DNA of 64,000 nt from Justusliebigvirus VEcB, in sequence record OZ035773.1. The stretch is one strand, 5' to 3'. How positions within the stretch are numbered: position 1 is the stretch's first letter; each line of letters opens with the position of its first letter. The notes beneath the pieces are model-generated. The model had not been told where the DNA came from, ran no database searches, and saw nothing but the letters and a program-made list of their open reading frames with translations. The position numbers and the translations under genes were made by a program. Positions 16,534 through 31,449 of the stretch are shown here, one piece after another.

Positions 16534-16752
16534 TATTTTGAAAATTTTTATTTTTATAAAAAGGGGTGTGGGTTTCATGTACGGAAATTCACCCTCTGCA
16601 CAGTATACCCAGAGTAAGTATTATTCTATACTCTGTTAATAAAGTATTTAATTTGTTTGTTGGACTATGGTATCTGATCTTTAAAAGGCATACTATCTCT
16701 TAACTACTACTTATAACAGAACAGTAAAATCATTTTTATAAAAAGTACAAAA

Positions 16753-16949
16753 TTATTTAAAGTTTTTACAGATTTTTGGGTACAAATTTTGAAAATGAAA
16801 AGTTCAAGTTTGGTCAAAATTATTTAAAGTTTTTGTACGTATTTCTATCCAGATTTTGAAAATGAAAACTTCAATTTTTTAAAAATTCCCCAGTTTATTT
16901 AAAGTTTTTTTGCCTTTTTCCGTAGAAAAATCAAAAATGAAAAGTTCAA
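16753..16949. repeat. three tandem ~67-75-bp direct repeats (each with TTATTTAAAGTTTTT and TTGAAAATGAAAAGTTCAA)
   Basis: Both sub-motifs recur three times at ~67- and ~75-bp spacing. Confidence 0.6.
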
Positions 16950-16972
16950 TTTCGTGTTTTTATAGGTGTGTT

Positions 16973-17084
16973 AATGAGAATCATTTTCGTTTGTAAATGA
17001 GAATCATTATCATTTAATTATGTAAGTGATAATCATTCTCAGTAAGAGAATGAGAATCATTAGCAAATGAGAATTTTTCTCATT
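16973..17084. promoter_or_regulatory. cluster of five Fur-box-like palindromes (AATGAGAATCATT variants)
   Basis: Sites at ~16973, 16996, 17027, 17049, 17066; closest match TGAGAATCATTATCA vs Fur 7-1-7 core TGATAATnATTATCA. Confidence 0.4.
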
Positions 17085-17346
17085 TAGAGAATAACGCGCA
17101 GGGGTGGTGTTTGTCTCGCGCTCCCGTGTCCCCTCGCCATACAATAAGAATAGCATAACCAACAACAAAAGCAAGCGATTATTTTTATCTTTACATTTCT
17201 TTACAAATTTATTTTAGACGAGCCACCGGCGATCAACCTTCCAACCAGTGCCCCCTGGTATGTTAGCCCCGCCTTTACGCCGTGGGGGTGGCGTTTCCTC
17301 TTCTGTATGTAAAACAGTATAAGCCCGATCCCTGGGCTTGTCAAGA

Positions 17347-17613
17347 TTATTTTTTGTTTTCTTGCCAGGATAGGACACCTAACCAAAAATACATGTCGCC
17401 CCGCGCCCCTGGCGGGATCTTGCTTTCCCCGCCGCCACTGCAAGCCCATAGATAACCATTAGCGAACGGATCAAAATGATCTATTTCTTCCACCTTATGA
17501 TCGCCCAGGTTGAGAACGGTTTCAACCTTTAAGCCCGTTGCGCTTGCTACCTGGTGCACCGTGCCGCCTTGCCAGCCTAATGAGTGCATGAGGTGTAGAG
17601 TAGGATTTGTCAT
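17347..17613 (-). CDS. hypothetical protein (88 aa) in GC-rich islet
   Basis: Track ORF; SD AAAGGGCGA; local GC content far above the rest of the window; coding status uncertain. Confidence 0.3.
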   Translation of the reverse strand: MTNPTLHLMHSLGWQGGTVHQVASATGLKVETVLNLGDHKVEEIDHFDPFANGYLWACSGGGESKIPPGARGDMYFWLGVLSWQENKK

Positions 17614-17724
17614 GGTATCGCCCTTTCTTTGATGTGCGCCCTGGTTGGCGCGGTAGAAAGATAATAGCCCTTTCCTTTATAGATAGCAAGCAAAAAAGAA
17701 ATGAAAAAAAGATTAAAAAAGGGG

Positions 17725-17753
17725 TTGACGTTCCTCACCTGGTAGCGTATTAT
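17725..17753 (+). promoter_or_regulatory. sigma70-like promoter
   Basis: TTGACG, 17 nt spacer, TATTAT; ~120-nt GC-rich leader before peptide ORF. Confidence 0.45.
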
Positions 17754-17880
17754 TCATCTTGTCGAGGGGGGCGAGGCACAACGACAATAAACAAAAGGAG
17801 GGCGCAATGTAGGACGGGCAAAGGTGAGGATCTCCACAATCCACCGTCACAATAACATTACTTATAAAAGGTTGATAACG

Positions 17881-17976
17881 ATGATCAAGAAAGAAAACAG
17901 CTTGACGGTTGGAACGATTAACGCTATCATTCTTGCCGTTCCATTTTGGGTTGTAGTTGCGGTTATTATTTTTTAA
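17881..17976 (+). CDS. 31-aa hydrophobic peptide
   Basis: Hand-translated MIKKENSLTVGTINAIILAVPFWVVVAVIIF; single TM-like segment; weak SD; downstream of promoter 17725. Confidence 0.35.
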   Translation: MIKKENSLTVGTINAIILAVPFWVVVAVIIF

Positions 17977-17984
17977 AAATATTC

Positions 17985-18042
17985 TTGACAACGTTTTTTA
18001 ATCTGATAAGATGTATCACATAGGGCGGCAATAGTGCCGCTC
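17985..18042 (+). promoter_or_regulatory. promoter + 5' stem-loop cassette 1
   Basis: TTGACA, 16 nt spacer, TAAGAT; then GGGCGGC-aatagt-GCCGCTC hairpin, then SD. Confidence 0.6.
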
Positions 18043-18064
18043 ATAACAGAAGAGAGAAATAATC

Positions 18065-18337
18065 ATGGCATCATATAGCGCATCAATGATCGTAATGGGC
18101 ATCACTGGTAAACCTATGCGCGGTGGCGGATCTTTCGCTAATATTAATATTGATGGGCGTTTATCCCTGGATGCAGCGATCACCGTGGCACGGGAAACAT
18201 TTAAAAAAGAATGCAATTTCAATAAACAAGATTATCTCGGTTTCGCTATTGAAAAAACCGCGCGCTTTGTTGATTATAAAAGCCCAAAAATGGTTGATAC
18301 TACACTAAAAGCGCAAGATGTAGCGTTTTTGCTTTAA
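18065..18337 (+). CDS. hypothetical protein (90 aa)
   Basis: Track ORF behind cassette 1. Confidence 0.55.
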   Translation: MASYSASMIVMGITGKPMRGGGSFANINIDGRLSLDAAITVARETFKKECNFNKQDYLGFAIEKTARFVDYKSPKMVDTTLKAQDVAFLL

Positions 18338-18340
18338 GGC

Positions 18341-18400
18341 TTGACACTGAAAAATAATTTGGTAATATATACCACATAAGGCGGGAAATGGTTTCCCGCC
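18341..18400 (+). promoter_or_regulatory. promoter + 5' stem-loop cassette 2
   Basis: TTGACA ... TAATAT; hairpin GGCGGGAAA-tgg-TTTCCCGCC. Confidence 0.6.
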
Positions 18401-18425
18401 AGGCCATCAAAGAAAGGGTAATGCA

Positions 18426-18788
18426 ATGAGCAAGCAAATCAATAATATCATGTTAAACCTGGTATCTTTCCGCGACGACGTGAAAAATCTTCCACGTGAT
18501 GCAGTGGATGCACGTATCGAAAGCTATCGCTCACAGATCGCAACGCTACCGCTAAAACGTGATCAACATGCCGCTAATATGATGCTTAATGCTATGCTTA
18601 AAAAGATGATTCAATGTGATCTTACTCTGGCTTATGAATATGCTGGCGATCTCTTTGTAACGTATAGTAAGCCCGTTCCAGGTATGAGCACCACGGAAGA
18701 ATTGCATGCCTTAAATCTGCGACAAGATGCATGGGATAACATGCGCCGTGTTATGGTATGGGTAGAAAGCGGTAAAATTTACGAATAA
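18426..18788 (+). CDS. hypothetical protein (120 aa)
   Basis: Track ORF behind cassette 2. Confidence 0.55.
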   Translation: MSKQINNIMLNLVSFRDDVKNLPRDAVDARIESYRSQIATLPLKRDQHAANMMLNAMLKKMIQCDLTLAYEYAGDLFVTYSKPVPGMSTTEELHALNLRQDAWDNMRRVMVWVESGKIYE

Positions 18789-18794
18789 AAACGG

Positions 18795-18847
18795 TTGACA
18801 TTGCACTAAAACCTGATAAGCTATCTTAAAGCGGGAATAGTTCCCGC
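18795..18847 (+). promoter_or_regulatory. promoter + 5' stem-loop cassette 3
   Basis: TTGACA ... TAAGCT; hairpin GCGGGAA-tag-TTCCCGC. Confidence 0.55.
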
Positions 18848-18866
18848 TTACATAGGATAAAACTTT

Positions 18867-19013
18867 ATGAAACAATATGTAATGAGTATTCACACCAAAA
18901 ACGGCGCTACTGTTACGACTCCGGCACGGTTTGCACTTGTAAACCGTTGCAAGAGACTAAAACGAGAGTTAAAAAATAACCGTGCAACGGGCTTTAAACG
19001 CTGGGGAGGATAA
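18867..19013 (+). CDS. small basic protein (48 aa), below track threshold
   Basis: Hand-translated MKQYVMSIHTKNGATVTTPARFALVNRCKRLKRELKNNRATGFKRWGG; behind cassette 3. Confidence 0.45.
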   Translation: MKQYVMSIHTKNGATVTTPARFALVNRCKRLKRELKNNRATGFKRWGG

Positions 19014-19015
19014 TC

Positions 19016-19288
19016 TTGTTTTTTCTAAAAGTTTTTGATAATGTGATCGCTTTTGAACATGCTACGACGTTCAACCTGGCGAGATACGCTATCAGGTTTA
19101 AAGATAATGTTTATCCCCGTGCTGGCGGCGGTTACACTATTTTTAATCATCGTAATGCGCAAATAACAGATATAACGAATCCAGATCCTGGGGTGTATCG
19201 CATAGGCTGGCTACCGTCAAAAGACGCGGCAAGCATGTTTAAGGTGTGTAAACTACTAACAGAAGAGGCGAACGAACATGGGGCGTGA
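19016..19288 (+). CDS. hypothetical protein (90 aa), non-ATG (TTG) start
   Basis: Track ORF; SD GGGAGGA 6 nt upstream of TTG; start uncertain. Confidence 0.35.
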   Translation: MFFLKVFDNVIAFEHATTFNLARYAIRFKDNVYPRAGGGYTIFNHRNAQITDITNPDPGVYRIGWLPSKDAASMFKVCKLLTEEANEHGA

Positions 19289-19823
19289 ATATGTGATCCA
19301 GTCCTGGGTAAAGCATGACGCTAATGATCCGCGCATAATACCAGATGACATGATCGATCACATGGTAGGGTATAGCGGGGAGCAGATAGGGAATCGAGCG
19401 GCAAAGAGCAACGGCAACACAAAGGCGCGATCCGTTCGCCCTGGTTGGCTGGTAAATGGTAACGCTGACATTGCAAGCGCCGCAGATCCAAGCGATGACG
19501 CTAAAAATAATCCCTTGTATAGCATTGATCCGGCTTTTAAGGTGTTGGAAGAGTATCCCGCTAAATTAGCCGCACTAGATAAAGCATACGAAGAAAAACG
19601 GGTGGCATGGACTGTATACAACACCGCTAAAATGGTGCTAGATGCAAAATTGATTAAAGCCCAGGAGAAGATCAATAAACTTGTGACCATAGCGCAAGAG
19701 GAAGACCAGGAGGAAGAGGAAGAAATCATTCCTATCCTGGAAGAGGAAGAGATCCAGCCATACATGCCGACGGAAGAGGAAAAAAGACAAGCCTTAAAAA
19801 ATTATAAAAATTGTATTGTGTAA
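19278..19823 (+). CDS. hypothetical protein (181 aa) with acidic C-terminal tail
   Basis: Track ORF; SD GAGGCGAA; Glu-rich tail. Confidence 0.5.
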   Translation: MGREYVIQSWVKHDANDPRIIPDDMIDHMVGYSGEQIGNRAAKSNGNTKARSVRPGWLVNGNADIASAADPSDDAKNNPLYSIDPAFKVLEEYPAKLAALDKAYEEKRVAWTVYNTAKMVLDAKLIKAQEKINKLVTIAQEEDQEEEEEIIPILEEEEIQPYMPTEEEKRQALKNYKNCIV

Positions 19824-19826
19824 GGC

Positions 19827-19855
19827 TTGACATATGCAAACAAGCCCCGTAATAT
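19827..19855 (+). promoter_or_regulatory. sigma70-like promoter with degenerate downstream stem-loop
   Basis: TTGACA, 17 nt spacer, TAATAT; followed by ACATAGAGCGGGGCAACGCCTC, resembling cassette leaders but imperfect. Confidence 0.4.
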
Positions 19856-19903
19856 ATACCACATAGAGCGGGGCAACGCCTCAAAGGTGAAATAAAAAAT
19901 CAC

Positions 19904-19931
19904 TTGACACCTGAAATCAGTAAGCTATAAT
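19904..19931 (+). promoter_or_regulatory. consensus sigma70 promoter
   Basis: TTGACA, 16 nt spacer, TATAAT (perfect hexamers). Confidence 0.6.
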
Positions 19932-19968
19932 GCTTATATAAATTAAAGCGTTACTAAGGAATAAAATC

Positions 19969-20334
19969 ATGGCTAAAAATATCAATGTCTCTGCTTATGC
20001 TACCCTGGCTAACACTGCTAAAATTGAACTATCCAGCATTGAAGCGGTACATATTAGCGCCCGTCGCTGGTTTCAAAAGTCTTATGGTAATACTTATTTC
20101 TCTTTGATGGTTGACGTTGAGATCGGCGGTAAACTGATTGAGGTCGTTAACGTTCCGTTTCAATATGGTTATGGTGATCATTTTGATACCGTTGCCCTAG
20201 AAGAGTTTAGCAAGGTTATCAACCTGGAAGGTAAAGACTTTTCAAATTATGCTTACCTTTCCCGTTTTTGCCGTGATAATGGGATCGCTGTATACAGTCA
20301 TGCAAGCGATGTTAAACGTAAAAAAGATTTATAA
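19969..20334 (+). CDS. hypothetical protein (121 aa)
   Basis: Track ORF; SD TAAGGAA. Confidence 0.55.
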   Translation: MAKNINVSAYATLANTAKIELSSIEAVHISARRWFQKSYGNTYFSLMVDVEIGGKLIEVVNVPFQYGYGDHFDTVALEEFSKVINLEGKDFSNYAYLSRFCRDNGIAVYSHASDVKRKKDL

Positions 20335-20340
20335 AAAGTA

Positions 20341-20403
20341 TTGACAGCACGAATAAAAAGCGTAAAATGTTTTATATCAGGACGGGGGAACGGTTTCCCC
20401 TCC
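20341..20403 (+). promoter_or_regulatory. promoter + 5' stem-loop cassette 4
   Basis: TTGACA ... TAAAAT; hairpin GGGGGAA-cgg-TTTCCCC. Confidence 0.55.
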
Positions 20404-20423
20404 TAACAAAGAGAGAAATAAAA

Positions 20424-20606
20424 ATGGCTAAATGCACTATCTGTAAGAAAGAAATAGTATTAGTTCCAAGTGCCCGTGAACGTGCCGCTAAGTTTGGTGG
20501 CAAACCGTCAGACTATACGAAAATGTTTACTACCCATGCAGCTTGTCAAGTAGCAAAACGTTCAGAAGAAAGCGTAAAATTAATGCGTAAACTTTCCAAA
20601 AAATAA
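20424..20606 (+). CDS. small basic protein (60 aa) with Cys pair
   Basis: From ATG 20424: MAKCTICKKEIV...HAACQV; track ORF extends upstream through the hairpin. Confidence 0.5.
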   Translation: MAKCTICKKEIVLVPSARERAAKFGGKPSDYTKMFTTHAACQVAKRSEESVKLMRKLSKK

Positions 20607-20608
20607 TA

Positions 20609-20667
20609 TTGACAAAGTATTTTATTACTATATAATGGTTTACATCGAGAGCGGGAATAGTTCCCGC
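20609..20667 (+). promoter_or_regulatory. promoter + 5' stem-loop cassette 5
   Basis: TTGACA, 16 nt spacer, TATAAT; hairpin GCGGGAA-tag-TTCCCGC. Confidence 0.6.
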
Positions 20668-20691
20668 CTCACTGAAAAAGAGATTAACATC

Positions 20692-20931
20692 ATGGCTAAA
20701 TCTAAAATGTACAACGGTCACAAAAACAAAACTCATTGGAATGTAAGCCTTTGGATCAACAACGATGAAGGTTTTTATAATCTTGCGCGTGAATTTATCG
20801 CAGCTAACACCAATAAGAATGACGCAGCGCGGGATATGATGTTATTTCTTGAAAGTATGGATCAAGATAAAACGCCAGACGGTTACAAGTTCAGTAAAAC
20901 TGCAATCCGTGCCGCTATGGTTGGAATGTAA
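20692..20931 (+). CDS. hypothetical protein (79 aa)
   Basis: From ATG 20692 (MAKSKMYNGH...) behind cassette 5. Confidence 0.5.
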   Translation: MAKSKMYNGHKNKTHWNVSLWINNDEGFYNLAREFIAANTNKNDAARDMMLFLESMDQDKTPDGYKFSKTAIRAAMVGM

Positions 20932-21026
20932 AGGAGACATAAAAATGAAACATCGTTCGACCTATCTGACAAAACGTTTTAGCTTAGATCATAAATTAGG
21001 CTATTACGGAAGAAATAGAAAATAAT

Positions 21027-21086
21027 TTGACAACGTTTAAAATTAGTGTAAGATGTATCACGTAGGGCGGGAAATGGTTTCCCGCC
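21027..21086 (+). promoter_or_regulatory. promoter + 5' stem-loop cassette 6
   Basis: TTGACA ... TAAGAT; hairpin GGCGGGAAA-tgg-TTTCCCGCC. Confidence 0.6.
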
Positions 21087-21108
21087 AAATCAAAGAAAGG
21101 TTATCATT

Positions 21109-21336
21109 ATGGCTATCGTTATTGTTCGCGTATCCGGTACGGTTGGGATCTCCCAGGTAGTAGCAGTTATCACCGAGAAGAAAGGGGATGATCTTCACTC
21201 CTCCTTGAATAGCTGGGCGGTCGCTAACTTTGGGCAATGGTCGAGCGTTGAGTACATCGAAGCCTACCAGGTGCCAACGATTAGCCTAACCGATCTAAAT
21301 GTTGATCGCTTGTTGTGCCTGGATGGATTAAACTAA
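21109..21336 (+). CDS. hypothetical protein (75 aa)
   Basis: Track ORF behind cassette 6. Confidence 0.5.
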   Translation: MAIVIVRVSGTVGISQVVAVITEKKGDDLHSSLNSWAVANFGQWSSVEYIEAYQVPTISLTDLNVDRLLCLDGLN

Positions 21337-21344
21337 AAATAATC

Positions 21345-21402
21345 TTGACAAGATAACTAAAATCAGTAAAATGTAATGCATAGGGCGGCAATAGTGCCGC
21401 CC
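21345..21402 (+). promoter_or_regulatory. promoter + 5' stem-loop cassette 7
   Basis: TTGACA, 16 nt spacer, TAAAAT; hairpin GGGCGGCA-atag-TGCCGCCC. Confidence 0.6.
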
Positions 21403-21423
21403 CTAGTGAGAGAGATTATCAAA

Positions 21424-21639
21424 ATGGCTAATATCCGCACCTTGTTAAAAAATGCAAAGCAAGTTTTATTTTCAGATGACGAATATTTTAATAAAGATAT
21501 TACAGGCGTGAAAAATCTTAAAGATGTGAAAGATGTGATAGGTATTCGCGGATCTTTACGTAAAGGTGACACATACGGTAACAAGGTGCAATATAAATTA
21601 GATCAGTTTTATGATTTTACTTTGACAATTATTTCATAA
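21424..21639 (+). CDS. hypothetical protein (71 aa)
   Basis: From ATG 21424 (MANIRTLL...) behind cassette 7. Confidence 0.5.
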   Translation: MANIRTLLKNAKQVLFSDDEYFNKDITGVKNLKDVKDVIGIRGSLRKGDTYGNKVQYKLDQFYDFTLTIIS

Positions 21640-21684
21640 AACTACTTGCAAACCTGGTAAAATAAAGTAAACTATATTCATTAA

Positions 21685-21706
21685 GGCGGTGGAATAGCCC
21701 ACCGCC
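21685..21706 (+). promoter_or_regulatory. 5' stem-loop of cassette 8 (promoter hexamers unclear)
   Basis: Hairpin GGCGGTGG-aatag-CCACCGCC immediately before SD. Confidence 0.45.
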
Positions 21707-21729
21707 TAACAAAGAGAAGAGGAAACATC

Positions 21730-21900
21730 ATGATCACTTTCGCTACCCGTGAAGCCGCTCGCAACGTTGCACGTAAAGTTAACGCCGCCAACCTGGGCGC
21801 TACGCTTAAAGCCCCGGTGAAAGATGAATCAGGAAAATGGATCTTTCCTGGTCTGCGTCACGCTGATAAGCTGGGAACATTAACGTTAAAAAATAAATAA
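21730..21900 (+). CDS. small protein (56 aa), below track threshold
   Basis: Hand-translated MITFATREAARNVARKVNAANLGATLKAPVKDESGKWIFPGLRHADKLGTLTLKNK; SD GAGAAGAGGAAA. Confidence 0.45.
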   Translation: MITFATREAARNVARKVNAANLGATLKAPVKDESGKWIFPGLRHADKLGTLTLKNK

Positions 21901-21907
21901 TATTCGC

Positions 21908-21966
21908 TTGACAGTAGCATCATTTATAAGTAAAGTAACAACAACGGCGGGAAATGGTTTCCCGCC
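21908..21966 (+). promoter_or_regulatory. promoter + 5' stem-loop cassette 9
   Basis: TTGACA ... TAAAGT; hairpin GGCGGGAAA-tgg-TTTCCCGCC. Confidence 0.55.
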
Positions 21967-21986
21967 ATCAATAAAGAGATAAGATT

Positions 21987-22346
21987 ATGAAATCAGTAAA
22001 AGCAATTAAAACTTACATTGTGTCGGCTATTTCTTTTGATGGTACTACAACCGAAAAAGAAAAAATCACCGAACTGATGCGCCGTTTTAACTCTGAATAC
22101 TGGTATCAATCTAATCGTGATCGTTATAATAACAATATGGTACAAGCTGTTAAAAGCTGGTTACAAGGTTTACCGTCAGACATCAATATCGCTTTTAATT
22201 ATAACGAGATCGATCAATTATTAATTGAATGGAAGTACATAAAAGAAACAAGCAAAGAAACAACCGTTACCCGTGAGCGGGAAAATTATTGGTTATATAT
22301 TGCAAGCATGATCGTAACTTTGGCAAAATATCATAACGTAGCGTAA
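21987..22346 (+). CDS. hypothetical protein (119 aa)
   Basis: Track ORF behind cassette 9. Confidence 0.55.
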   Translation: MKSVKAIKTYIVSAISFDGTTTEKEKITELMRRFNSEYWYQSNRDRYNNNMVQAVKSWLQGLPSDINIAFNYNEIDQLLIEWKYIKETSKETTVTRERENYWLYIASMIVTLAKYHNVA

Positions 22347-22360
22347 TCGAGAGGAAAAAC

Positions 22361-22498
22361 ATGAACGCATCACAGCAGATCGAAAAATTCAACCGCAACA
22401 AAGCGCGTAAAGATTGGAACGAAGAGATCACCAAAAAAGGCGACAAGCGGAACAAAACAAAAAGAGATCGCAGCACAAAAAGATACTGGAACGAATAA
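22361..22498 (+). CDS. small highly basic protein (45 aa), below track threshold
   Basis: Hand-translated MNASQQIEKFNRNKARKDWNEEITKKGDKRNKTKRDRSTKRYWNE; SD GAGAGGAAAAAC; followed by terminator. Confidence 0.45.
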   Translation: MNASQQIEKFNRNKARKDWNEEITKKGDKRNKTKRDRSTKRYWNE

Positions 22499-22502
22499 CA
22501 AA

Positions 22503-22527
22503 AAAGGGCGCAATAAGCGCCCTTTTA
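22503..22527 (+). terminator. rho-independent terminator
   Basis: GGGCGC-aataa-GCGCCC followed by TTTT. Confidence 0.6.
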
Positions 22528-22616
22528 GCTTATATAGAGGCTTGTTACCCATAGGCAATGGTAACGCCAGGATAAGCCTATAAACCACGTTAGACAGCTT
22601 TACAGGAGCTTTAAAA

Positions 22617-22799
22617 ATGAAATTAGAAGAAATAAGCAAGGCACTAGCCCAGGGGCAAAGGTTAAACGCCCGTTATCGTGATCAATATGGCTTCATAACC
22701 AGCGGCGTGATCCTGGGGATTGAAGGCAATAAGATTTTTATTGACACGTTGAAAAACGTTGTATATAGTGACAATATAATCTCAATAAAACATATATGA
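22617..22799 (+). CDS. hypothetical protein (60 aa)
   Basis: Track ORF; SD ACAGGAG. Confidence 0.45.
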   Translation: MKLEEISKALAQGQRLNARYRDQYGFITSGVILGIEGNKIFIDTLKNVVYSDNIISIKHI

Positions 22800-22807
22800 G
22801 GCAAGAA

Positions 22808-23209
22808 ATGAAAAAATTATTGATCGCTGGTTTAATCTCTTTTGGCATGGTTGGAACATCTAGCGCGGCGATATCCTCCACAGTAGCAGAATTAAGCGCC
22901 GTTGATGCAATGGAAAACGTCATGATCATTAATAATGCGATCCCCGATGAAATCATGGAGGATTCACACATGATCGCTTATGGTGCTGTTACACAACTAA
23001 CGGCAAAAATAGATAAATCTATTGTTAATGGCTTAAATGAAGATGTACCATGTGAAATTATTACCAGTGTGCTGACTACTCAAAATTTTACGCCGTGGCT
23101 AAAAAGTATTCAAAAGGTGCATAGTGCAGCCGCAGATCGTAGCAATGAAAAACTAGTGTCAGCACTTGCAACGTATACCCTGGCAAAATGCACTGAAATA
23201 AAAGATTGA
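22808..23209 (+). CDS. secreted/periplasmic protein with signal peptide
   Basis: From ATG 22808: MKKLLIAGLISFGMVGTSSAA|ISS; track ORF has 4 extra codons. Confidence 0.5.
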   Translation: MKKLLIAGLISFGMVGTSSAAISSTVAELSAVDAMENVMIINNAIPDEIMEDSHMIAYGAVTQLTAKIDKSIVNGLNEDVPCEIITSVLTTQNFTPWLKSIQKVHSAAADRSNEKLVSALATYTLAKCTEIKD

Positions 23210-23234
23210 CAACATAGAAAGCACGTTATAAGAT
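23206..23234 (+). promoter_or_regulatory. sigma70-like promoter
   Basis: TTGACA, 17 nt spacer, TAAGAT. Confidence 0.5.
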
Positions 23235-23256
23235 ACACACAACAAAGGAGAACTAC

Positions 23257-23559
23257 ATGAACGGCATAGCTAAAACGTTTTTTCTTTTTTCTGGTGTAAA
23301 TGATCCATCAATAAAAGTCGATAGTGTAAAAGAAAACAATACTATCACCGCTAAATTGTTTCAAGATGAAACAAATAACGTGCTAATCATTAATCTTAAA
23401 GAAATAACTAAAGGTTATTATACTATTGCTTACCATGCGATCTATCATGCTGGTACTAGCGAGGAAGTGCAAACAAGCAACAACGAAAGCGCGGCGCTAC
23501 CTGGTGATCTGGTGCTGGGCGTTATCAGTTTAATTGTCAATGATTTTTTTAAGGAGTAA
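23257..23559 (+). CDS. hypothetical protein (100 aa)
   Basis: Track ORF; SD AAAGGAGAA. Confidence 0.55.
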   Translation: MNGIAKTFFLFSGVNDPSIKVDSVKENNTITAKLFQDETNNVLIINLKEITKGYYTIAYHAIYHAGTSEEVQTSNNESAALPGDLVLGVISLIVNDFFKE

Positions 23560-23563
23560 AACC

Positions 23564-23659
23564 ATGCCCTATTTACATTTATTTTTCGGGATCTTATTGT
23601 CAGGATCTTTTTTCTTCTGTATACTTGTTTCTATTGTAAACCACGTTTTAAGACATTAA
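23564..23659 (+). CDS. 31-aa hydrophobic peptide
   Basis: Hand-translated MPYLHLFFGILLSGSFFFCILVSIVNHVLRH; strong SD AAGGAG. Confidence 0.4.
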   Translation: MPYLHLFFGILLSGSFFFCILVSIVNHVLRH

Positions 23660-23668
23660 GGAAACAGC

Positions 23669-23788
23669 ATGAAAATTATTCCCGTACAATATAGCGTAAT
23701 AAATCCAGCATACGAGGAAGGAAGGAAAACAAGCATGGCTTTATGTTATATTGCTACTATAGCCATGTTGTTATATATTGTGTTTTAA
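23669..23788 (+). CDS. 39-aa peptide with hydrophobic C-terminus (alternative internal start gives 17-aa MALCYIATIAMLLYIVF)
   Basis: Hand-translated MKIIPVQYSVINPAYEEGRKTSMALCYIATIAMLLYIVF; SD AAGGAAAC; internal ATG 23735 has SD GAGGAAGGAAGG. Confidence 0.35.
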   Translation: MKIIPVQYSVINPAYEEGRKTSMALCYIATIAMLLYIVF

Positions 23789-23817
23789 TAGGTTTTATAG
23801 TTGTACGCTTTAAAGGC

Positions 23818-23845
23818 TTGACAATTTTTTGTTATGCTTTAAACT
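23818..23845 (+). promoter_or_regulatory. sigma70-like promoter
   Basis: TTGACA, ~16 nt spacer, TAAACT. Confidence 0.4.
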
Positions 23846-23888
23846 ATATCTTGAAAACGGCAAAGGCCGCAAACAAAAGGGTAAAATT

Positions 23889-24212
23889 ATGAAATCTGTG
23901 ATCGGTGTTTATTTGGATAACTCTGATTTTTTCTATCATCGCGCTCGTTTCCTTGATGCGATTGAAATGATAGAATCAGGCTTTAAAGAGTATCGCCTTG
24001 CACATGATGACCTAGAAGCATTACAGGGCAATAGTGTTTTTACATTGCAAGCGAAAGCACTATGCAAAAGCCGGATCGACATTGCGAGCAAAAAGATAGA
24101 ACGCGGCATGTCCTGGTTACGCACCGCAGAAATCAACATGGGGCAATGGTACGGCGAAAACTTAGAAAATAAACTCACTTTTGTAAATGTAGAAAATATT
24201 AAAGATTATTGA
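23889..24212 (+). CDS. hypothetical protein (107 aa)
   Basis: From ATG 23889 (MKSVIGVYLD...); SD AAAAGGG. Confidence 0.5.
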   Translation: MKSVIGVYLDNSDFFYHRARFLDAIEMIESGFKEYRLAHDDLEALQGNSVFTLQAKALCKSRIDIASKKIERGMSWLRTAEINMGQWYGENLENKLTFVNVENIKDY

Positions 24213-24274
24213 TTGACAGCACACCTGATAAGGAGTATATTGTATCTCATAGAGCGGGGAAATGGTTTCCCCGC
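24213..24274 (+). promoter_or_regulatory. promoter + 5' stem-loop cassette 10
   Basis: TTGACA, 17 nt spacer, TATATT; hairpin GCGGGGAAA-tgg-TTTCCCCGC. Confidence 0.6.
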
Positions 24275-24294
24275 CTTAACAGAAGAGATAAGAT

Positions 24295-24579
24295 ATGAAG
24301 ATCACAAAAGCACTTTCCAACTATGCAGCACGTCGCGGATTATGCTTATCCGTTGAAAACTTAGGGAAAGAAGATTTTTTGTGCTTTTGGGAGCTTGAGA
24401 ATGATAATGAGTGGATCTTCTCTTATTCTATCTGCGAAGATCAAAACGGTTGTTTATTAACCTGGCGCGGTAATATCTATCTACCGGAAGAAATCAAAGA
24501 AGAATTGCCAGGCACGATCATGACTGAGAAACAGCTTAAGGAAGTGATTAATTTTGTAGGGCAAAACATTAAAAAATAA
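24295..24579 (+). CDS. hypothetical protein (94 aa)
   Basis: Track ORF behind cassette 10. Confidence 0.55.
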   Translation: MKITKALSNYAARRGLCLSVENLGKEDFLCFWELENDNEWIFSYSICEDQNGCLLTWRGNIYLPEEIKEELPGTIMTEKQLKEVINFVGQNIKK

Positions 24580-24580
24580 T

Positions 24581-24639
24581 TTGACACTAGGCAAACAACG
24601 TAGTAAAGTTTATCACATAGGGCGGCAATAGTGCCGCTC
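24581..24639 (+). promoter_or_regulatory. promoter + 5' stem-loop cassette 11
   Basis: TTGACA, 17 nt spacer, TAAAGT; hairpin GGGCGGC-aatagt-GCCGCTC (near-identical to cassette 1). Confidence 0.6.
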
Positions 24640-24660
24640 ATAACAGAAGAGAAACAAATC

Positions 24661-24831
24661 ATGATCCCAACTATGTTTTATGTATCGCGCAAAGGTCACA
24701 ATATTTTTTGGTCTGAAGATTTAAATGAAGCCATGACGTTTGCCCGTGATCGTGTTGCTATTGGTGGCGTTAATATCACCGTAACCGATGAAAACGGCAT
24801 TGAATACTATAACGGCGACGATGAAGAGTAA
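24661..24831 (+). CDS. hypothetical protein (56 aa)
   Basis: From ATG 24661 (MIPTMFYVSRKGHNIFW...) behind cassette 11. Confidence 0.5.
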   Translation: MIPTMFYVSRKGHNIFWSEDLNEAMTFARDRVAIGGVNITVTDENGIEYYNGDDEE

Positions 24832-24838
24832 TTAATGA

Positions 24839-24859
24839 GGCGGGGGAGTATTCCCCGCC
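24839..24859 (+). promoter_or_regulatory. 5' stem-loop of cassette 12 (no clear promoter)
   Basis: Hairpin GGCGGGGG-agtat-TCCCCGCC before SD. Confidence 0.45.
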
Positions 24860-24878
24860 GTCAATAAAGAGGTAAATC

Positions 24879-25148
24879 ATGAAAATATCTTTGGACGTTG
24901 CAATCAAGGCCATCGAATCCGGTTACACCCTGGTAAAAGATGATAAGGCTAAAATAGTGCATCATGTTAACAAGGAAACAGGCGAAAGCATGATCACATA
25001 TAAAGCCGCCTACTTTCTCCAATCAGTAGCAGATCCGCGCGTACAGCGCCAGGTCACGGCGGCTATTGCTAAAAAATTATGTGCTTTACAGGGCACAAGT
25101 TTTAACGAGATCGCCCCGTGTTTTGACTGGTCGAGCTTGAAAAAATAG
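24879..25148 (+). CDS. hypothetical protein (89 aa)
   Basis: Track ORF; SD AAAGAGG. Confidence 0.55.
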   Translation: MKISLDVAIKAIESGYTLVKDDKAKIVHHVNKETGESMITYKAAYFLQSVADPRVQRQVTAAIAKKLCALQGTSFNEIAPCFDWSSLKK

Positions 25149-25149
25149 T

Positions 25150-25211
25150 TTGATAATACGCGGTTATCTGGTAAAGTGTACGACATAGGGCGGGGCAATA
25201 AGGCAACGCCC
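25150..25211 (+). promoter_or_regulatory. promoter + imperfect 5' stem-loop, cassette 13
   Basis: TTGATA ... TAAAGT; GGGCG...CGCCC stem with larger loop. Confidence 0.4.
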
Positions 25212-25230
25212 ATTAATGAGGGGTAGAATC

Positions 25231-25335
25231 ATGTTAGAGAAAATTTTCACGGTTGTAATAGTGGGCCTGGCGTTATCGGTTGGATTGGTTGCAACTATGG
25301 CTAACATGATCCTATCTTCCCACGGTATCGGCTAA
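25231..25335 (+). CDS. 34-aa hydrophobic peptide
   Basis: Hand-translated MLEKIFTVVIVGLALSVGLVATMANMILSSHGIG; SD GAGGGG. Confidence 0.4.
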   Translation: MLEKIFTVVIVGLALSVGLVATMANMILSSHGIG

Positions 25336-25349
25336 AAGAGAAACACAAC

Positions 25350-25736
25350 ATGAAAACAGAAATCATTATTGAAATCATCAACGGTTATAAAGAAGCCTTT
25401 ATTTTTGCCGAACCAGCGACGGATCACAATGGGGAATATATTGAGAATCTAGACGATTATGATTTTTCTCCTAGCGCCCTGAAACGTATTACCAGCGATG
25501 TGACCGCCTTTTGTGATGCCAATGATGCCGCTATCTCTGAGGCAATGAGCGACGGCGCTACAGCAAACCAGATCGGGAATGATTTACATTTTACCAGTAA
25601 CGGTCACGGCGTAGGTTTTTGGGATCGCCCTGAAATATACACTACTAACACCGCCAACCGTTTAACTGATGCAGCTAAATTAATGCCATTGGTGCATGCT
25701 TACATTGGTGAAGATAATTTGATTTATATTGACTAA
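25350..25736 (+). CDS. hypothetical acidic protein (128 aa)
   Basis: Track ORF. Confidence 0.55.
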   Translation: MKTEIIIEIINGYKEAFIFAEPATDHNGEYIENLDDYDFSPSALKRITSDVTAFCDANDAAISEAMSDGATANQIGNDLHFTSNGHGVGFWDRPEIYTTNTANRLTDAAKLMPLVHAYIGEDNLIYID

Positions 25737-25741
25737 AAGTG

Positions 25742-25800
25742 TTGACACCGATCCCCAATATGTTATTATTTACCACGTAGGCGGGAAATGGTTTCCCGCC
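25742..25800 (+). promoter_or_regulatory. promoter + 5' stem-loop cassette 14
   Basis: TTGACA, 16 nt spacer, TATTAT; hairpin GGCGGGAAA-tgg-TTTCCCGCC. Confidence 0.6.
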
Positions 25801-25823
25801 AGGTAATCAAAAAGGTAAATACT

Positions 25824-26213
25824 ATGCGCAACCTGGTTTCTGTTTCTAACGTTGAAAAATTTCAATCCTTACAGGGTATCGTTAACAACGTAGCGCCTTT
25901 TTTAGTAAACGGCTTGATCGCAAAGATGAAAAATAAACATCATGCGGCATGGTCTGCTTACTGCTTTGATAATGATGAAAAAGCGGCTGAAATGATGTTA
26001 GATATGCTGTTAGATAGTGTAGAAACATCTTTACCGGAAAACATCGCAGAAGAGATCACCTATCGTTATAATATGGCGATCACTTACCAGGAGGTTGCGC
26101 AATTCAACATGATGGATGATGACGAACAACAGGATCAGGAAATGTTCTGGGAGTATGCGGATCGTCAATCAGCTTTTGATGAAAAATTAGCGATGTATTA
26201 TAACGAATATTAA
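25824..26213 (+). CDS. hypothetical protein (129 aa)
   Basis: From ATG 25824 (MRNLVSVSNVEKF...); track ORF starts inside the hairpin. Confidence 0.55.
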   Translation: MRNLVSVSNVEKFQSLQGIVNNVAPFLVNGLIAKMKNKHHAAWSAYCFDNDEKAAEMMLDMLLDSVETSLPENIAEEITYRYNMAITYQEVAQFNMMDDDEQQDQEMFWEYADRQSAFDEKLAMYYNEY

Positions 26214-26226
26214 TACACGGTAAAAG

Positions 26227-26254
26227 AAAGGGGCGCACTAAGCGCCCTTTTTTG
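26227..26254 (+). terminator. rho-independent terminator
   Basis: GGGCGC-actaa-GCGCCC followed by TTTTTTG. Confidence 0.65.
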
Positions 26255-26400
26255 TATTCTTTTTCACAATGGAAGCGACACGTAAAGAATAGGCGTAAAG
26301 GTGGCGTAAAACCATCTAAAACCGACTGTAACCGCTTAAACAAGGTAGGAATGATTAATCACCTTACCAGGATGAAAAAGCTGTTATAAAGCTATCTAGG

Positions 26401-26697
26401 GTGTTTAAAGGTGACTTGGTTGAAGTTAGAACAACCGAAGGTTATAGCGACGATTATAAATGCGAGATTCATTTACACAACTGGTACACGGGTAAAACTT
26501 ATGCGCTGAATCATGCGTTTATCGGCAAGGTTGAATATAGAGAAATGATCGACGAAGAAACCGGGCAAGATTTTAGCGATCATGTTTATATTCGTTCAGA
26601 AACATTAGCCGAACGTTTGATCGAGAAAATGAAAGCAAAAAATAAAATTAATTTAGCTCATTGGATTGATATAACAAACGATCCAGCTTATAAGTAA
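26401..26697 (+). CDS. hypothetical protein (98 aa), GTG start
   Basis: Track ORF; weak RBS; start uncertain. Confidence 0.35.
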   Translation: MFKGDLVEVRTTEGYSDDYKCEIHLHNWYTGKTYALNHAFIGKVEYREMIDEETGQDFSDHVYIRSETLAERLIEKMKAKNKINLAHWIDITNDPAYK

Positions 26698-26712
26698 ATA
26701 ACATTTCATACC

Positions 26713-26739
26713 AGGGCGCTTATTGCGCCCTTTCTTTTT
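26713..26739 (+). terminator. rho-independent terminator closing the cassette array
   Basis: AGGGCGC-ttatt-GCGCCCT followed by TTCTTTTT. Confidence 0.65.
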
Positions 26740-26827
26740 ACCTAAATAAAGATGATAGCTTTTACCTATCAAAAACGTTCACCGAAAAAAGTGAATAGAT
26801 CGCGGTATCGAGCTAATCAAGGAGCAG

Positions 26828-26968
26828 ATGAACAACCATACCATGAAGATCATAAGGCGTTTACAGCGTGTTTTAGACCGTTTATTTTTAATTTCTTCAT
26901 GCAACTATAGGACAAAAACAGTCTTTTTCTTGTCTTTCCTCTTAAATGATAATCATTCTTATTTATAG
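26828..26968 (+). CDS. possible small ORF (46 aa) reading into a Fur-box-like site
   Basis: Hand-translated MNNHTMKIIRRLQRVLDRLFLISSCNYRTKTVFFLSFLLNDNHSYL; SD AAGGAG 3 nt upstream; speculative. Confidence 0.25.
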   Translation: MNNHTMKIIRRLQRVLDRLFLISSCNYRTKTVFFLSFLLNDNHSYL

Positions 26969-27015
26969 CTGATTATTTATGCAATAAACTGCATAATGCA
27001 ATAATGATAATCATT
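26945..27015. promoter_or_regulatory. two Fur-box-like palindromes (AATGATAATCATT)
   Basis: Sites at ~26945-26957 and ~27003-27015; second reads ATAATGATAATCATTCTTA vs Fur consensus GATAATGATAATCATTATC. Confidence 0.45.
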
Positions 27016-27385
27016 CTTAACTTAAGACCATCTAACTTATAAAATAATAAGTTATCTAACTAAATTAAAGCTAATTATCTTACTTTTATTTATAACATAC
27101 TGTTACTATCTTATTGATAACCTTATATTAAACAACAATAATCAATGTAAATCATTACTAAGCTAACTATAATCTATCTAACCATTAAAACTATAACTAT
27201 AATCTATCGAATTGTTGCACAAAGTAACTATTAAATTGTTAGTAACATTACTAAATAATTCACATCTTATCTATTTATGATCTAATCTTTACCTCCCTAT
27301 TTATTACCTAAATAACCATTTCATGTAGTAATCATTTCATACAATAACTATAACAAGAAATATAATTCGCAAGCGTATCATTAGC

Positions 27386-27539
27386 AGCCTATGCCGGACA
27401 CATAGGCGGCTAATAATAACGCAACTACACCCCCCCACATAATAACTATCGCCGATAGTTATTATTTGTGTTTATGTAGCTTGCAACAATTGCAAGCGCA
27501 ACAATATACATGGTATATTGTATTCCCTTACATTGTTGC
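27386..27539. repeat. cluster of four palindromes/hairpins
   Basis: GCCTATG-n7-CATAGGC (~27386-27406); 27-bp perfect palindrome ATAATAACTATCG-c-CGATAGTTATTAT (~27438-27464); GCTTGCAA-caa-TTGCAAGC (~27478-27496); CAATATAC-atg-GTATATTG nested in CGCAACAAT...ATTGTTGCG (~27496-27539). Confidence 0.55.
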
Positions 27540-27618
27540 GGTGCGTTATTATTAGCTAATGTTTAGAACATTGGCTATAATATAAGCTGCATATAATAAG
27601 CTATACAATAATAAACAT

Positions 27619-27654
27619 AATGAATAATGACACTGAAATGAATAATGACACTGA
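27619..27654. repeat. perfect tandem duplication of 18-bp unit AATGAATAATGACACTGA
   Basis: Two adjacent identical copies. Confidence 0.6.
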
Positions 27655-27794
27655 TGATCATAATGCGCCACCCTCCAGGGGCGCTATGTGAACACAAAGA
27701 AATCTTTCTTGTCAAGAAAAATATCATCATTATTGCGCAAAATTATTTACATCTGAATAGATGATTTTTCATACTATTGCCCCCATATAACTTA

Positions 27795-27853
27795 CTATTT
27801 GTTGCAATGTATTCCCCTATTTGTTGAGCATAGTTATAGCCTATTTGTTGAGC
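27795..27853. repeat. three iteron-like direct repeats CTATTTGTTG(AGC) at ~22-24-bp spacing
   Basis: Copies at ~27795, 27817, 27841 (about two helical turns apart). Confidence 0.55.
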
Positions 27854-27926
27854 CTACTTTCTTAAAAGCGCAATAAATCAGAATTATCTTGATTTTTAGG
27901 TAGTTTTATAGTATAGAAAATATGCA

Positions 27927-27942
27927 AATGATAATCATTATC
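27927..27942. promoter_or_regulatory. Fur-box-like palindrome, best match
   Basis: GCAAATGATAATCATTATC matches Fur consensus GATAATGATAATCATTATC at 17 of 19 positions; overlaps a possible promoter upstream of small ORF 28006. Confidence 0.45.
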
Positions 27943-28005
27943 AGCTATCTTCCACGGGTGGCACTATTTCACACCAGATCATTTCATTTGGCAAGGTGTA
28001 GATAG

Positions 28006-28110
28006 ATGTTTAGACTTGCCAAGTTATTGATTTACTTAGAATTTATCTGTTTTGTTGTAAGTAGAGCCTTTTTTGCTCAGAAAATAATCAAAAGTCTTAT
28101 AAGTCATTGA
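28006..28110 (+). CDS. possible 34-aa hydrophobic peptide flanked by Fur-box-like sites
   Basis: Hand-translated MFRLAKLLIYLEFICFVVSRAFFAQKIIKSLISH; SD AAGGTG 7 nt upstream; speculative. Confidence 0.3.
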   Translation: MFRLAKLLIYLEFICFVVSRAFFAQKIIKSLISH

Positions 28111-28140
28111 ATGATAATGCAAATGATAATTATTCTCATT
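28109..28140. promoter_or_regulatory. composite Fur-box-like site (overlapping GATAAT hexamers)
   Basis: GAATGATAATGCAAATGATAATTATTCTCATT. Confidence 0.4.
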
Positions 28141-28512
28141 GATATTTGAGGGGGACGGTCGGGAAAAATCGGGGGGCGCTGAAAATCGCGTTAAGCACCT
28201 CTCGCAAGCGAGCAGTATTTTGCGGCAAGTTATTGATATTATTGACTTTACGCTTATGAAAAGGGGGTGTGTCGAAATAAATCGGGTATACCGGAAAATT
28301 TTTGTGGCATAGATATTTATTTGTCTATATTATGTACAAAGGGGTGTGTTAAAAATATTAGGTATATATAGAATAATTGATAGGGAAATCCTATACTAAT
28401 TCCTCCATTAATGATGTTTCTATGTTGCTGTTCTTGTAATAGATGAAAAGACGCTGTATGATGTGTGGCATGAAACGTAATCCTACAACGTAATCTTATA
28501 AAGGAGTCTGAT

Positions 28513-28878: not shown

Positions 28879-28960
28879 AAATGTCTGTATAGTGGTTTGC
28901 ATACCGCGCACGACGCGTTTCCATTTTCAATAAAATGTTAGCATTATGGGGAGGTAGAAA

Positions 28961-29591: not shown

Positions 29592-29602
29592 GGAGTTGTG
29601 TA

Positions 29603-30055: not shown

Positions 30056-30056
30056 T

Positions 30057-30565: not shown

Positions 30566-30574
30566 GGAGCAGCC

Positions 30575-31145: not shown

Positions 31146-31154
31146 GAGGGAAGT

Positions 31155-31403: not shown

Positions 31404-31449
31404 TAGATGTTATTCTTTTGTGTTTCTTGATATATAAATAGGAGGGTTT

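Follow-up and report, generated by a model that had tools for sequence, protein, structure and literature searches.

An array of promoter and hairpin cassettes ahead of small ORFan genes in Justusliebigvirus VEcB, and its part in gene exchange

The window analysed here is a stretch of 64,000 nucleotides (nt) from Justusliebigvirus VEcB (sequence record OZ035773.1), and the element under study is a unit of about 85 bp that recurs through a block of very small genes in its first half. The block holds 27 open reading frames (ORFs) of 26-181 amino acids, all on the plus strand between 18,065 and 26,697 (coordinates by script), in line with the roughly 25 small genes of the original prediction made for this DNA. 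About half of these tiny genes have a copy of the unit of their own, consisting of a promoter, an RNA hairpin and a ribosome site. The phage is a member of the subfamily Stephanstirmvirinae (genus Justusliebigvirus, phi92/alia-like) and is not of the T4 type. In particular, the span 17,985-26,739 matches BME3, alia, Paula and PaulScherrer, E. coli myoviruses of the phi92/alia-like kind with genomes of about 147 kb, in 4-9 pieces at 94-96% identity. PHROG searches with 20 of the array proteins gave no function for any of them, 19 matching different families, all of unknown function, and one matching none.

Read in order, the unit contains an A/T-rich stretch, a near-consensus sigma70 promoter, a start region CA(C/T)(A/G)TAG, a hairpin formed by a G-run and a C-run, and an unstructured A/purine-rich leader with a weak Shine-Dalgarno (SD) sequence, and often also ATGGCTAAA. 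Genes at 19,969, 20,424 and 20,692 (also 21,109 and 21,424) start with ATGGCTAAA or ATGGCTA-, and the conserved cassette thus reaches codons 2-3. Thirteen complete modules (TTGACA-N16/17-TAnnnT, G-run/C-run hairpin, A-rich leader, ATG) lie on the plus strand within 17,725-25,826, together with incomplete elements: one hairpin lacks a promoter, one module is weak, two are decayed, and two promoters lack a hairpin. The elements are as follows, each complete module being listed from the first base of its -35 box.

17,725-26,253, plus strand: the whole cassette array with its small ORFan genes, beginning with the decayed first module and ending with the second T-run terminator
17,725-17,810, plus strand: C0, promoter TTGACG-N17-TATTAT with a decayed hairpin (GGGGGGCGAGGC), ahead of the span that starts at 17,985
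17,985-18,067, plus strand: C1, complete; -35 at 17,985, -10 at 18,007-18,012, hairpin 18,023-18,042 (GGGCGGCAatagTGCCGCTC, one G.U pair), ATG 18,065
18,341-18,428, plus strand: C2, complete; -10 at 18,363-18,368, hairpin 18,380-18,400 (GGCGGGAAAtggTTTCCCGCC), ATG 18,426
18,795-18,869, plus strand: C3, complete; -10 TAAGCT at 18,817-18,822, hairpin 18,829-18,849 (AAGCGGGAAtagTTCCCGCTT), ATG 18,867
19,827-19,890, plus strand: C4, good promoter, decayed hairpin 19,866-19,882, no gene following
19,904-19,971, plus strand: C4b, perfect TTGACA-N16-TATAAT promoter without a hairpin, ATG 19,969
20,341-20,426, plus strand: C5, complete; hairpin 20,380-20,403 (GGACGGGGGAAcggTTTCCCCTCC), ATG 20,424
20,609-20,694, plus strand: C6, complete; perfect consensus promoter, hairpin 20,647-20,670, ATG 20,692
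21,027-21,111, plus strand: C7, complete; hairpin 21,066-21,086, ATG 21,109
21,345-21,426, plus strand: C8, complete; hairpin 21,383-21,402 (GGGCGGCAatagTGCCGCCC), ATG 21,424; junction partner in phage muut
21,646-21,732, plus strand: C9, complete; TTGCAA-N16-TAAACT, hairpin 21,684-21,707 (AGGCGGTGGaatagcCCACCGCCT), ATG 21,730; junction partner in muut
21,908-21,989, plus strand: C10, complete; hairpin 21,946-21,966, ATG 21,987
22,502-22,526, plus strand: terminator-like hairpin with a T-run, closing the first half of the array
23,206-23,259, plus strand: C11, consensus promoter without a hairpin, ATG 23,257
23,818-23,891, plus strand: C12, promoter with only a weak 4-bp hairpin (23,858-23,869), ATG 23,889
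24,213-24,297, plus strand: C13, complete; hairpin 24,254-24,274 (GCGGGGAAAtggTTTCCCCGC), ATG 24,295
24,581-24,663, plus strand: C14, complete; hairpin 24,620-24,639, ATG 24,661
24,832-24,881, plus strand: C15, hairpin 24,839-24,859 (GGCGGGGGAgtaTTCCCCGCC) and leader without a promoter, abutting the upstream stop codon, ATG 24,879
25,150-25,233, plus strand: C16, complete; TTGATA-N16-TAAAGT, imperfect hairpin 25,188-25,211, ATG 25,231
25,742-25,826, plus strand: C17, complete, the last module; hairpin 25,780-25,800, ATG 25,824
26,225-26,253, plus strand: terminator-like hairpin with a T-run, closing the array, 87% identical to the copy at 22,502

At least 14 genes had been predicted to carry the module. 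Thirteen have it in full, whereas the fourteenth (ATG 24,879) has the hairpin and leader but lacks the promoter. The limits proposed for the array, 17,985-26,739, do enclose modules, but 26,250-26,739 holds a cassette-less gene and terminators, and the decayed module at 17,725 precedes the proposed start. All four pairs of stem arms that had been quoted are present, and the hairpin, expected about 8-10 nt after the -10 box, lies slightly farther from it: when stems are fully extended it starts 9-12 nt past the -10 in 15 of the 16 window cases and 6 nt past it in one. From the end of the stem to the ATG there are 17-25 nt of unpaired A-rich leader. In a set drawn from the window and ten loci of other phages (104 modules with 36 distinct hairpins), the hairpin starts 10-11 nt past the -10 in 62 modules, and 16-25 nt separate the stem from the ATG.

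The array of modules is a real and highly non-random feature. A strict scan of the plus strand found 7 modules when a pure Watson-Crick stem of at least 7 bp was demanded and 10 when one G.T pair was allowed, all within the array; 60 dinucleotide shuffles of the 64 kb gave a mean of 0.02 modules and a maximum of 1. The predicted composite of sigma70-type promoter, stem-loop and SD/ATG is borne out. When a covariance model made from seven copies was searched against the whole window, both strands and unfiltered, it returned 13 elements at E<0.1, every one on the plus strand and between 18,015 and 25,812, with the reverse strand of the same palindromes scoring about 30 bits lower. The 8.5 kb of the array contain 13-17 copies, the rest of the 64 kb practically none.

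Folding of the predicted leaders, which had been suggested as a check, gave one 5'-proximal hairpin in all 14 (-14 to -19 kcal/mol, z from -1.4 to -5.5), and left some 20 nt at the end, SD and AUG among them, unpaired; leaders with a decayed hairpin or none produce no such fold. All hairpins share one polarity, the G-rich arm being 5' on the coding strand. Different hairpin types can occupy one orthologous site: upstream of the gene at 24,661, where the window has GGGCGGCA/TGCCGCTC, three other types are found, namely GGGCGGGAAA/TTTCCCGCTC in Paula, GGGCGGGAA/TTCCCGCTC with a 5-nt loop in ZYD, and GAGCGGTGGA/TCCGCCGCTC in PD114. In an Infernal alignment of 149 matches (80 distinct rows), standard pairs occupy 98.1% of cells against 81.7% after shuffling (none of 500 shuffles reached the observed value), five of the nine stem pairs have changed on both sides, and the covariation score is 0.452, compared with 0.160 for shuffled data and 0.007-0.129 with slid partners. 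Pairing, not sequence, is conserved in these hairpins, as had been supposed from their differing sequences. Column-wise covariation on a plain MAFFT alignment was discarded, as it aligned the arms by sequence and fitted no single structure, and was replaced by loop-anchored counting and Infernal. A search of 17,000-27,500 against Rfam gave no relevant match at E <=1, a match to the hilD 3' untranslated region (UTR) being below threshold and on the other strand.

The same variability bears on the proposal that the inverted repeat is a regulator site, either an operator at about +3 to +24 (like lacO) for a phage or host protein on DNA, or a site on the nascent or mature RNA for early-gene shut-off or timing or for RNA polymerase modification. 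Operators are typically found just past the transcription start, most Stephanstirmvirinae copies have a GCGG...CCGC core, and several putative DNA-binding proteins and transcription factors are encoded in the block downstream. However, within one genome the stem sequence, its length (6-10 bp), the unconserved loop (3-6 nt) and the spacing of the core half-sites (8-12 nt) all vary, G.U pairs are present, and the Asteriusvirus and Vequintavirus versions described below lack the GCGG core; pairing rather than sequence is what is kept. We therefore consider a regulator site quite improbable. In its simplest form, a palindromic operator of fixed geometry, it was rejected, since loops of 3-6 nt, core spacings of 8-12 nt, symmetry-breaking G.T pairs and several stem families per genome do not agree with it; a dimeric DNA operator is a poor candidate.

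Several known classes of hairpin were also rejected on sequence grounds alone. The stems of 7-10 bp are too short for RNase III sites, the loop is not conserved as it would be in lambda-type nut/boxB elements, and the presence of clear sigma70 promoters speaks against N4-type hairpin promoters. Mimicry of a CRISPR repeat was dismissed because the stem of the E. coli type I-E repeat has the opposite, C-first polarity.

The original prediction likened the cassettes to the promoter early stem-loops (PeSLs) of T4-type phages, composites of about 100 bp made of A/T-rich DNA, a sigma70-like promoter, a G-run/C-run stem-loop at variable positions and SD/ATG (PMC2839356, PMC4122927). PeSLs lie in hyperplastic regions, where they terminate or attenuate upstream transcription, border insertions and deletions and form mini-circles (PMC2839356, PMC4122927), and have been described in RB49/phi1, PST/T4 and nt-1/KVP40, all T4-type (Arbiol et al. 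2010, PMC2839356; Comeau et al. 2014, PMC4122927). The cassettes of the window are likewise composites of about 85-100 bp present in many copies in a hyperplastic ORFan region, they border insertions, deletions and replacements with crossovers at various points, and, as in RB49, their stem joins a G-run to a C-run with the same G-first polarity.

The placement of the stem-loop is different. When the RB49 region in which PeSLs were defined was passed through the same scanner, 20 intergenic regions had a promoter. In 14 of these the stem-loop started 13-24 nt ahead of the last base of the -10, and in one it lay downstream; it takes up the spacer between -35 and -10 (TTGAC[AggggatcaccgatccccT]ATAAT) or else overlaps the -10. 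Since it is inside the promoter, the RB49 stem-loop can act only on read-through from upstream. In PST and nt-1 the stem-loop lies upstream of the promoter (PMC4122927, figs 3 and 4). In the window, by contrast, it lies 6-12 nt past the -10 in 16 of 16 cases and never within or upstream of the promoter; being always downstream of the -10, it is transcribed from its own promoter. The lineage also differs (Stephanstirmvirinae, and also Vequintavirinae and Asteriusvirus), as do the RB49 leader and stem sequences, and the units bounded by the cassettes here cross phage families. BLAST with a 93-nt cassette gave 542 places in 142 phage records, with no RB49/phi1-type phage in the organism tally or among the 60 matches listed. 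Thus the composition, the setting in a hyperplastic ORFan block and the junction role agree with the PeSL comparison, while placement, likely action, lineage and sequence do not, and the cassette is a PeSL-like variant, not a PeSL.

If the hairpin nevertheless worked as PeSLs do, it would be an attenuator or terminator that damps read-through from upstream promoters and isolates each gene. The RB49 stem-loop lowered the expression of a downstream lacZ and was called an effective terminator (PMC2839356), the stems in the window are stable (-14 to -19 kcal/mol), and with just two T-run terminators for about 17 promoters some damping would be useful; the annotators of Paula and ASO2A label these hairpins terminators. 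The cassette hairpins do resemble intrinsic terminators in being short, GC-rich and intergenic, but they follow a promoter and have no U-tract, with only 0-3 T in the 8 nt past the stem. An intrinsic terminator was rejected on these grounds, the true ones at 22,502, 26,225 and 26,713 having T-runs. In a terminator scan a single cassette hairpin passed, on the non-coding strand, which is also the strand of the Paula calls. Moreover, a hairpin downstream of its own promoter, unlike the one inside the RB49 promoter, would attenuate its own transcripts too, and a terminator role leaves the tight spacing from the -10 unexplained. We regard attenuation as the chief function of the hairpin as possible but doubtful.

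Junctions at which relatives and the window differ in gene content were examined for the role in gene shuffling that has been proposed for PeSLs (PMC2839356, PMC4122927) and that the original prediction extended to this locus. Hybrid cassettes were found at six junctions. Phage muut lacks the gene 21,424-21,639 and has a C8 x C9 hybrid, with the -35 and spacer from 21,345 and the -10, hairpin and gene from 21,646, the join falling in the -10 region. PD114 lacks the gene 18,065-18,337 (C1 x C2, crossover within the 5' arm of the hairpin), muut also lacks 17,733-18,786 (C0 x C3, crossover at the -35 boxes of 17,725 and 18,795), and JLBYU50 lacks 17,771-18,023 (C0 x C1, crossover between the two hairpins). 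An extra gene with its cassette is present at module 25,150 (C16) in Paula, muut and ZYD. Finally, the window itself has lost a 180-nt gene and its cassette at C4b (ATG 19,969) by a crossover at the shared ATGGCTA; the gene is kept in PaulScherrer, JLBYU50 and ZYD and is listed in the Paula annotation too. C0, decayed in the window but with an intact hairpin in its phAPEC8 orthologue, is a partner in both the muut and the JLBYU50 deletions.

Repeat families reach 49 nt at 94% identity, and the crossovers are distributed across the whole repeat (-35, -10, hairpin arm, ATG), which fits general homologous recombination. These junctions show that the cassettes are dispersed direct repeats between which ordinary homologous recombination deletes, inserts and replaces genes. 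The comparison of equal 8,755-nt queries against close relatives gave the following.

Cassette array: 4-9 pieces per close relative, 94.5-96% identity, 243 records including other phage families
Cassette-free block 28,600-37,354: 1-4 pieces, 94.8-98.8% identity, 124 records
Cassette-free block 3,000-11,754: 1-3 pieces, 97-99% identity, 126 records

The array is far more broken up than its cassette-free neighbors and is thus truly hyperplastic relative to them. In the curated annotation of PaulScherrer the blocks beside the array also consist of small hypothetical genes, which run end to end with overlapping stops and starts and have no individual promoters.

Given such junctions, the hairpin could be a self-propagating or hitch-hiking repeat with no role in expression, kept for recombination and possibly the target of a structure-specific enzyme. 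Junctions do fall in cassettes, some of them in a hairpin arm (PD114, JLBYU50), and the authors of the PeSL work speculated on a protein recognizing GGGG...CCCC (PMC2839356). On the other hand, crossovers spread over the -35, -10, hairpin and ATG indicate general homologous recombination and not a specific site, while the fixed distances to the -10 and the ATG, the constant G-first polarity and the open ribosome-binding site point to selection on the transcript. Decayed hairpins are found where no normal module gene follows, C4 having no gene and C0 only a 31-amino-acid ORF about 70 nt downstream. A purely recombinational repeat is very improbable.

The same design occurs outside the subfamily, in the 366-kb Asteriusvirus CRJP21 (TTGACA-N16-TATAAT, GAGGGGGAatggTTCCCCTC, ctaacaaagagagagaaataaaaATG) and in Vequintavirus slur12; the Asteriusvirus and Vequintavirus hairpins are without the GCGG core. 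Units whose edges coincide with parts of the cassette are common to the window and to Vequintavirus and jumbo Asteriusvirus phages at 89-96% identity. In CRJP21, identity to the window of about 93% (an estimate from the alignment) covers the leader, the gene 20,424-20,606 and the next promoter and hairpin (C6), and drops sharply directly past the ATGGCTA of the next gene. In slur12, 96% identity extends from the first base of the hairpin at 25,188 to the stop of a 34-amino-acid gene, and the promoter spacer is unrelated. That gene (25,231-25,335) encodes a hydrophobic peptide (MLEKIFTVVIVGLALSVGLVATMANMILSSHGIG); many Vequintavirus genomes have it at 96% DNA identity, and it is among the most widely shared units of the array. 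The hybrid junctions and these shared edges show the cassettes to be the recombination joints both of the hyperplastic ORFan array and of the units exchanged between families.

A bolder reading of these matches would make the cassette a shared plug-in standard of a cross-family gene pool, with the hairpin read by a dedicated factor, either an RNA-binding protein timing early mRNA or a structure-specific recombination enzyme. Under it, three unrelated lineages of large myoviruses infecting E. coli, the phi92-like phages, the rV5-like phages and the jumbo phages of Asteriusvirus, would keep one common design of promoter, 5' hairpin and leader. We think this unlikely; were it true, an ORFan acquired from a co-infecting phage would be expressed at once after recombination at the joints, and the system would be integron-like and not a passive by-product of homology.

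The explanation that we favor, with a probability of roughly 0.55, is that the array is a hyperplastic region driven by the host RNA polymerase, presumably early, in which cassettes recombine and the 5' hairpin protects or insulates the mRNA. Transcription would start about 6-8 nt past the -10, within the conserved CA(C/T)(A/G)TAG, so that in each primary transcript the 5' end would be 2-5 nt from the hairpin, which would act as RNA and not as a terminator. It would make the 5' end harder to reach for RppH and RNase E and so stabilize the mRNA. By folding on itself it would also leave the ribosome-binding region open, whatever gene or upstream sequence had been joined to it. Such a module would be self-contained, any gene placed behind it being expressed, so that recombinants at the joints would be viable. 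Both RppH and RNase E require a single-stranded 5' end, and stabilization by 5' secondary structure is explained by this (review PMC3997798, where Emory, Bouvet and Belasco 1992 are cited). The most likely role of the hairpin would be to protect the 5' end or to insulate the mRNA, and of the functions originally considered it is mRNA stabilization that we would prefer. For phi92-like, rV5-like or Asteriusvirus phages the searchable literature yielded neither transcription-start nor transcriptome data, nor did it describe the hairpin; the sole transcriptome match was a T5-like phage.

Several points weigh against this explanation. The figure of 2-5 unpaired nt is deduced from promoter geometry, and a start at the A 6 nt past the -10 would leave five unpaired nt, which may be too many for strong protection. 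E. coli RppH, like its B. subtilis counterpart, acts on ends with at least 2-3 unpaired nt. For the B. subtilis RppH-type enzyme the requirement of at least 2-3 unpaired nt is documented (PMC3997798). Promoter and hairpin are separable, as two perfect promoters (19,904 and 23,206) have no hairpin and one hairpin (24,839) has no promoter, and a stable hairpin without a U-tract could, from its sequence, attenuate read-through. The alignment used for covariation was fitted to the structure and includes reverse-strand copies, and much of the apparent covariation consists of whole-hairpin swaps between paralogous cassettes and not of independent compensatory mutations. The test of which strand acts is weak, because an unbiased count of internal non-Watson-Crick pairs gives 9 G.T, 3 A.C and 6 others; an initial count of 16 against 6 was biased, as the hairpin finder admitted G.T but not A.C, and the asymmetry was rejected as proof of a plus-strand RNA, being only suggestive.

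The statistics of breakpoints have a similar weakness. In BLAST chains against eight relatives, 20 of 29 distinct breakpoints lie no more than 10 nt from a cassette, cassettes making up 21.6% of the region (P=6e-8 against uniform placement), but of the intergenic DNA 72% is cassette, and against a null confined to intergenic positions the enrichment loses its significance (P=0.16). Enrichment was therefore rejected as proof of cassette-mediated recombination, and the case rests on the sequences of the hybrid junctions, where the cassette-bounded insertions and deletions expected among relatives were found.

Among the known systems close to the cassettes are the 5'-terminal stabilizing stem-loops of the E. 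coli ompA and papA mRNAs (Belasco laboratory, reviewed in PMC3997798). Both they and the cassettes combine a sequence-independent hairpin, near the 5' end or, in the cassettes, predicted to be so, with an accessible ribosome-binding site after it, and hindrance of RppH and RNase E would be expected in both. For ompA and papA, however, the 5' end and the half-life were measured, while here they are deduced, and here the hairpin belongs to a mobile repeated cassette. Lambdoid morons (promoter-gene-terminator) are comparable in that accessory genes are added with their own transcription signals. They lack a conserved repeat at their flanks and are believed to come in through illegitimate recombination, whereas the conserved cassette here supplies the homology. 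The array also recalls integrons, in which small unrelated genes, mostly promoterless by origin, are split by structured repeats (attC) where cassettes exchange. An integrase is required in integrons, which recombine attC sites as folded single strands and use one shared promoter; in the array each cassette has its own promoter, and the junctions resemble ordinary homologous crossovers and imply no integrase.

One solitary module of the same design lies outside the array.

61,780-61,871, minus strand: TTGACT-N17-TAGTAT promoter, hairpin AGGAGAGCgtaGCTCTCCT, leader taaaaagagagaaggagaatttATG

Its leader contains taaaaagagagaaggag. Extrapolation of coordinates to PaulScherrer places it upstream of a small gene that itself precedes the ribonucleotide-reductase genes, and by this location the cassette design would not be restricted to ORFans.

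Other features of the window surround the array. The terminator palindrome GGGCGC-AATAA/ACTAA-GCGCCC with A/T runs occurs three times (22,502-22,526, 26,225-26,253 and, inverted, 26,713-26,731), and its second and third copies form a 49-nt inverted repeat around the gene 26,401-26,697; relatives have an insertion of about 660 nt at 26,401. Downstream of the array, 26,740-28,500 is AT-rich (33% GC) and almost without ORFs, and contains tandem repeats (18 nt twice at 27,619-27,654, 30 nt twice at 27,150-27,209) and near-perfect palindromes at 27,425-27,479 and 27,483-27,539. The GenBank record of phi92 begins at about window position 28,260, so that the array is just ahead of the conventional genome end. 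Palindromes AATGA(T/G)AATCATT resembling Fur boxes cluster in the two non-coding regions that bracket the array, 16,970-17,064 and 26,945-28,134 (also at 4463). The motif GATAATGATAATCATTATC, the E. coli Fur-box consensus, is matched with up to 3 mismatches 7 times against 0.03 expected, best at 27,924-27,942 (2 mismatches). By their sequence these palindromes could be sites of host Fur or of a phage DNA-binding protein. Adjoining the upstream cluster, the ORF-poor region 16,740-16,960 carries about three copies of iteron-like direct repeats (tatttaaagttttt...ttttgaaaatgaaaagttcaa) at a spacing of about 70 nt and may be an origin or a regulatory region. The UvrD/Rep-family helicase of this phage group, annotated with an intein, corresponds to about 2300-5100 on the minus strand (PaulScherrer annotation), and no transfer RNA gene was found in the 64-kb window.

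Some database labels of the relatives deserve comment. Records named Campylobacter phage A150, A145, A110a and B15 are about 95% identical to these E. coli phages, and ZYD is filed under Vequintavirinae despite 95% identity to Justusliebigvirus; both are likely errors of host or taxonomy labelling. The hairpins themselves are recorded as terminators on the non-coding (minus) strand in Paula, as "promoter | terminator" in ASO2A (MZ726793), and in phAPEC8, where 20-mers of the hairpin have a sigma70 promoter just upstream, as "putative promoter determined with PHIRE". These annotations disagree with each other and are probably wrong, and the present analysis corrects hairpins deposited as minus-strand terminators, as "promoter | terminator" or as PHIRE phage promoters.

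The interest of the array rests on the fixed 5'-UTR hairpin, on the exchange between families and on this widespread mis-annotation. A constant hairpin at the head of the transcript makes it testable whether phages standardize the stability and translation of early mRNA by a portable 5' element; if they do, it would also give E. coli a naturally insulated part for gene expression that is ready for use. Phage engineers can take the cassettes as safe points of insertion and deletion. The idea of regulatory cassettes as seams of gene shuffling, formulated for PeSLs in T4-like phages, now takes in three or more further groups of large coliphages, and it gives a concrete mechanism by which ORFan accessory genes, often concerned with anti-defence or host takeover, would circulate among phages of the type used in therapy.

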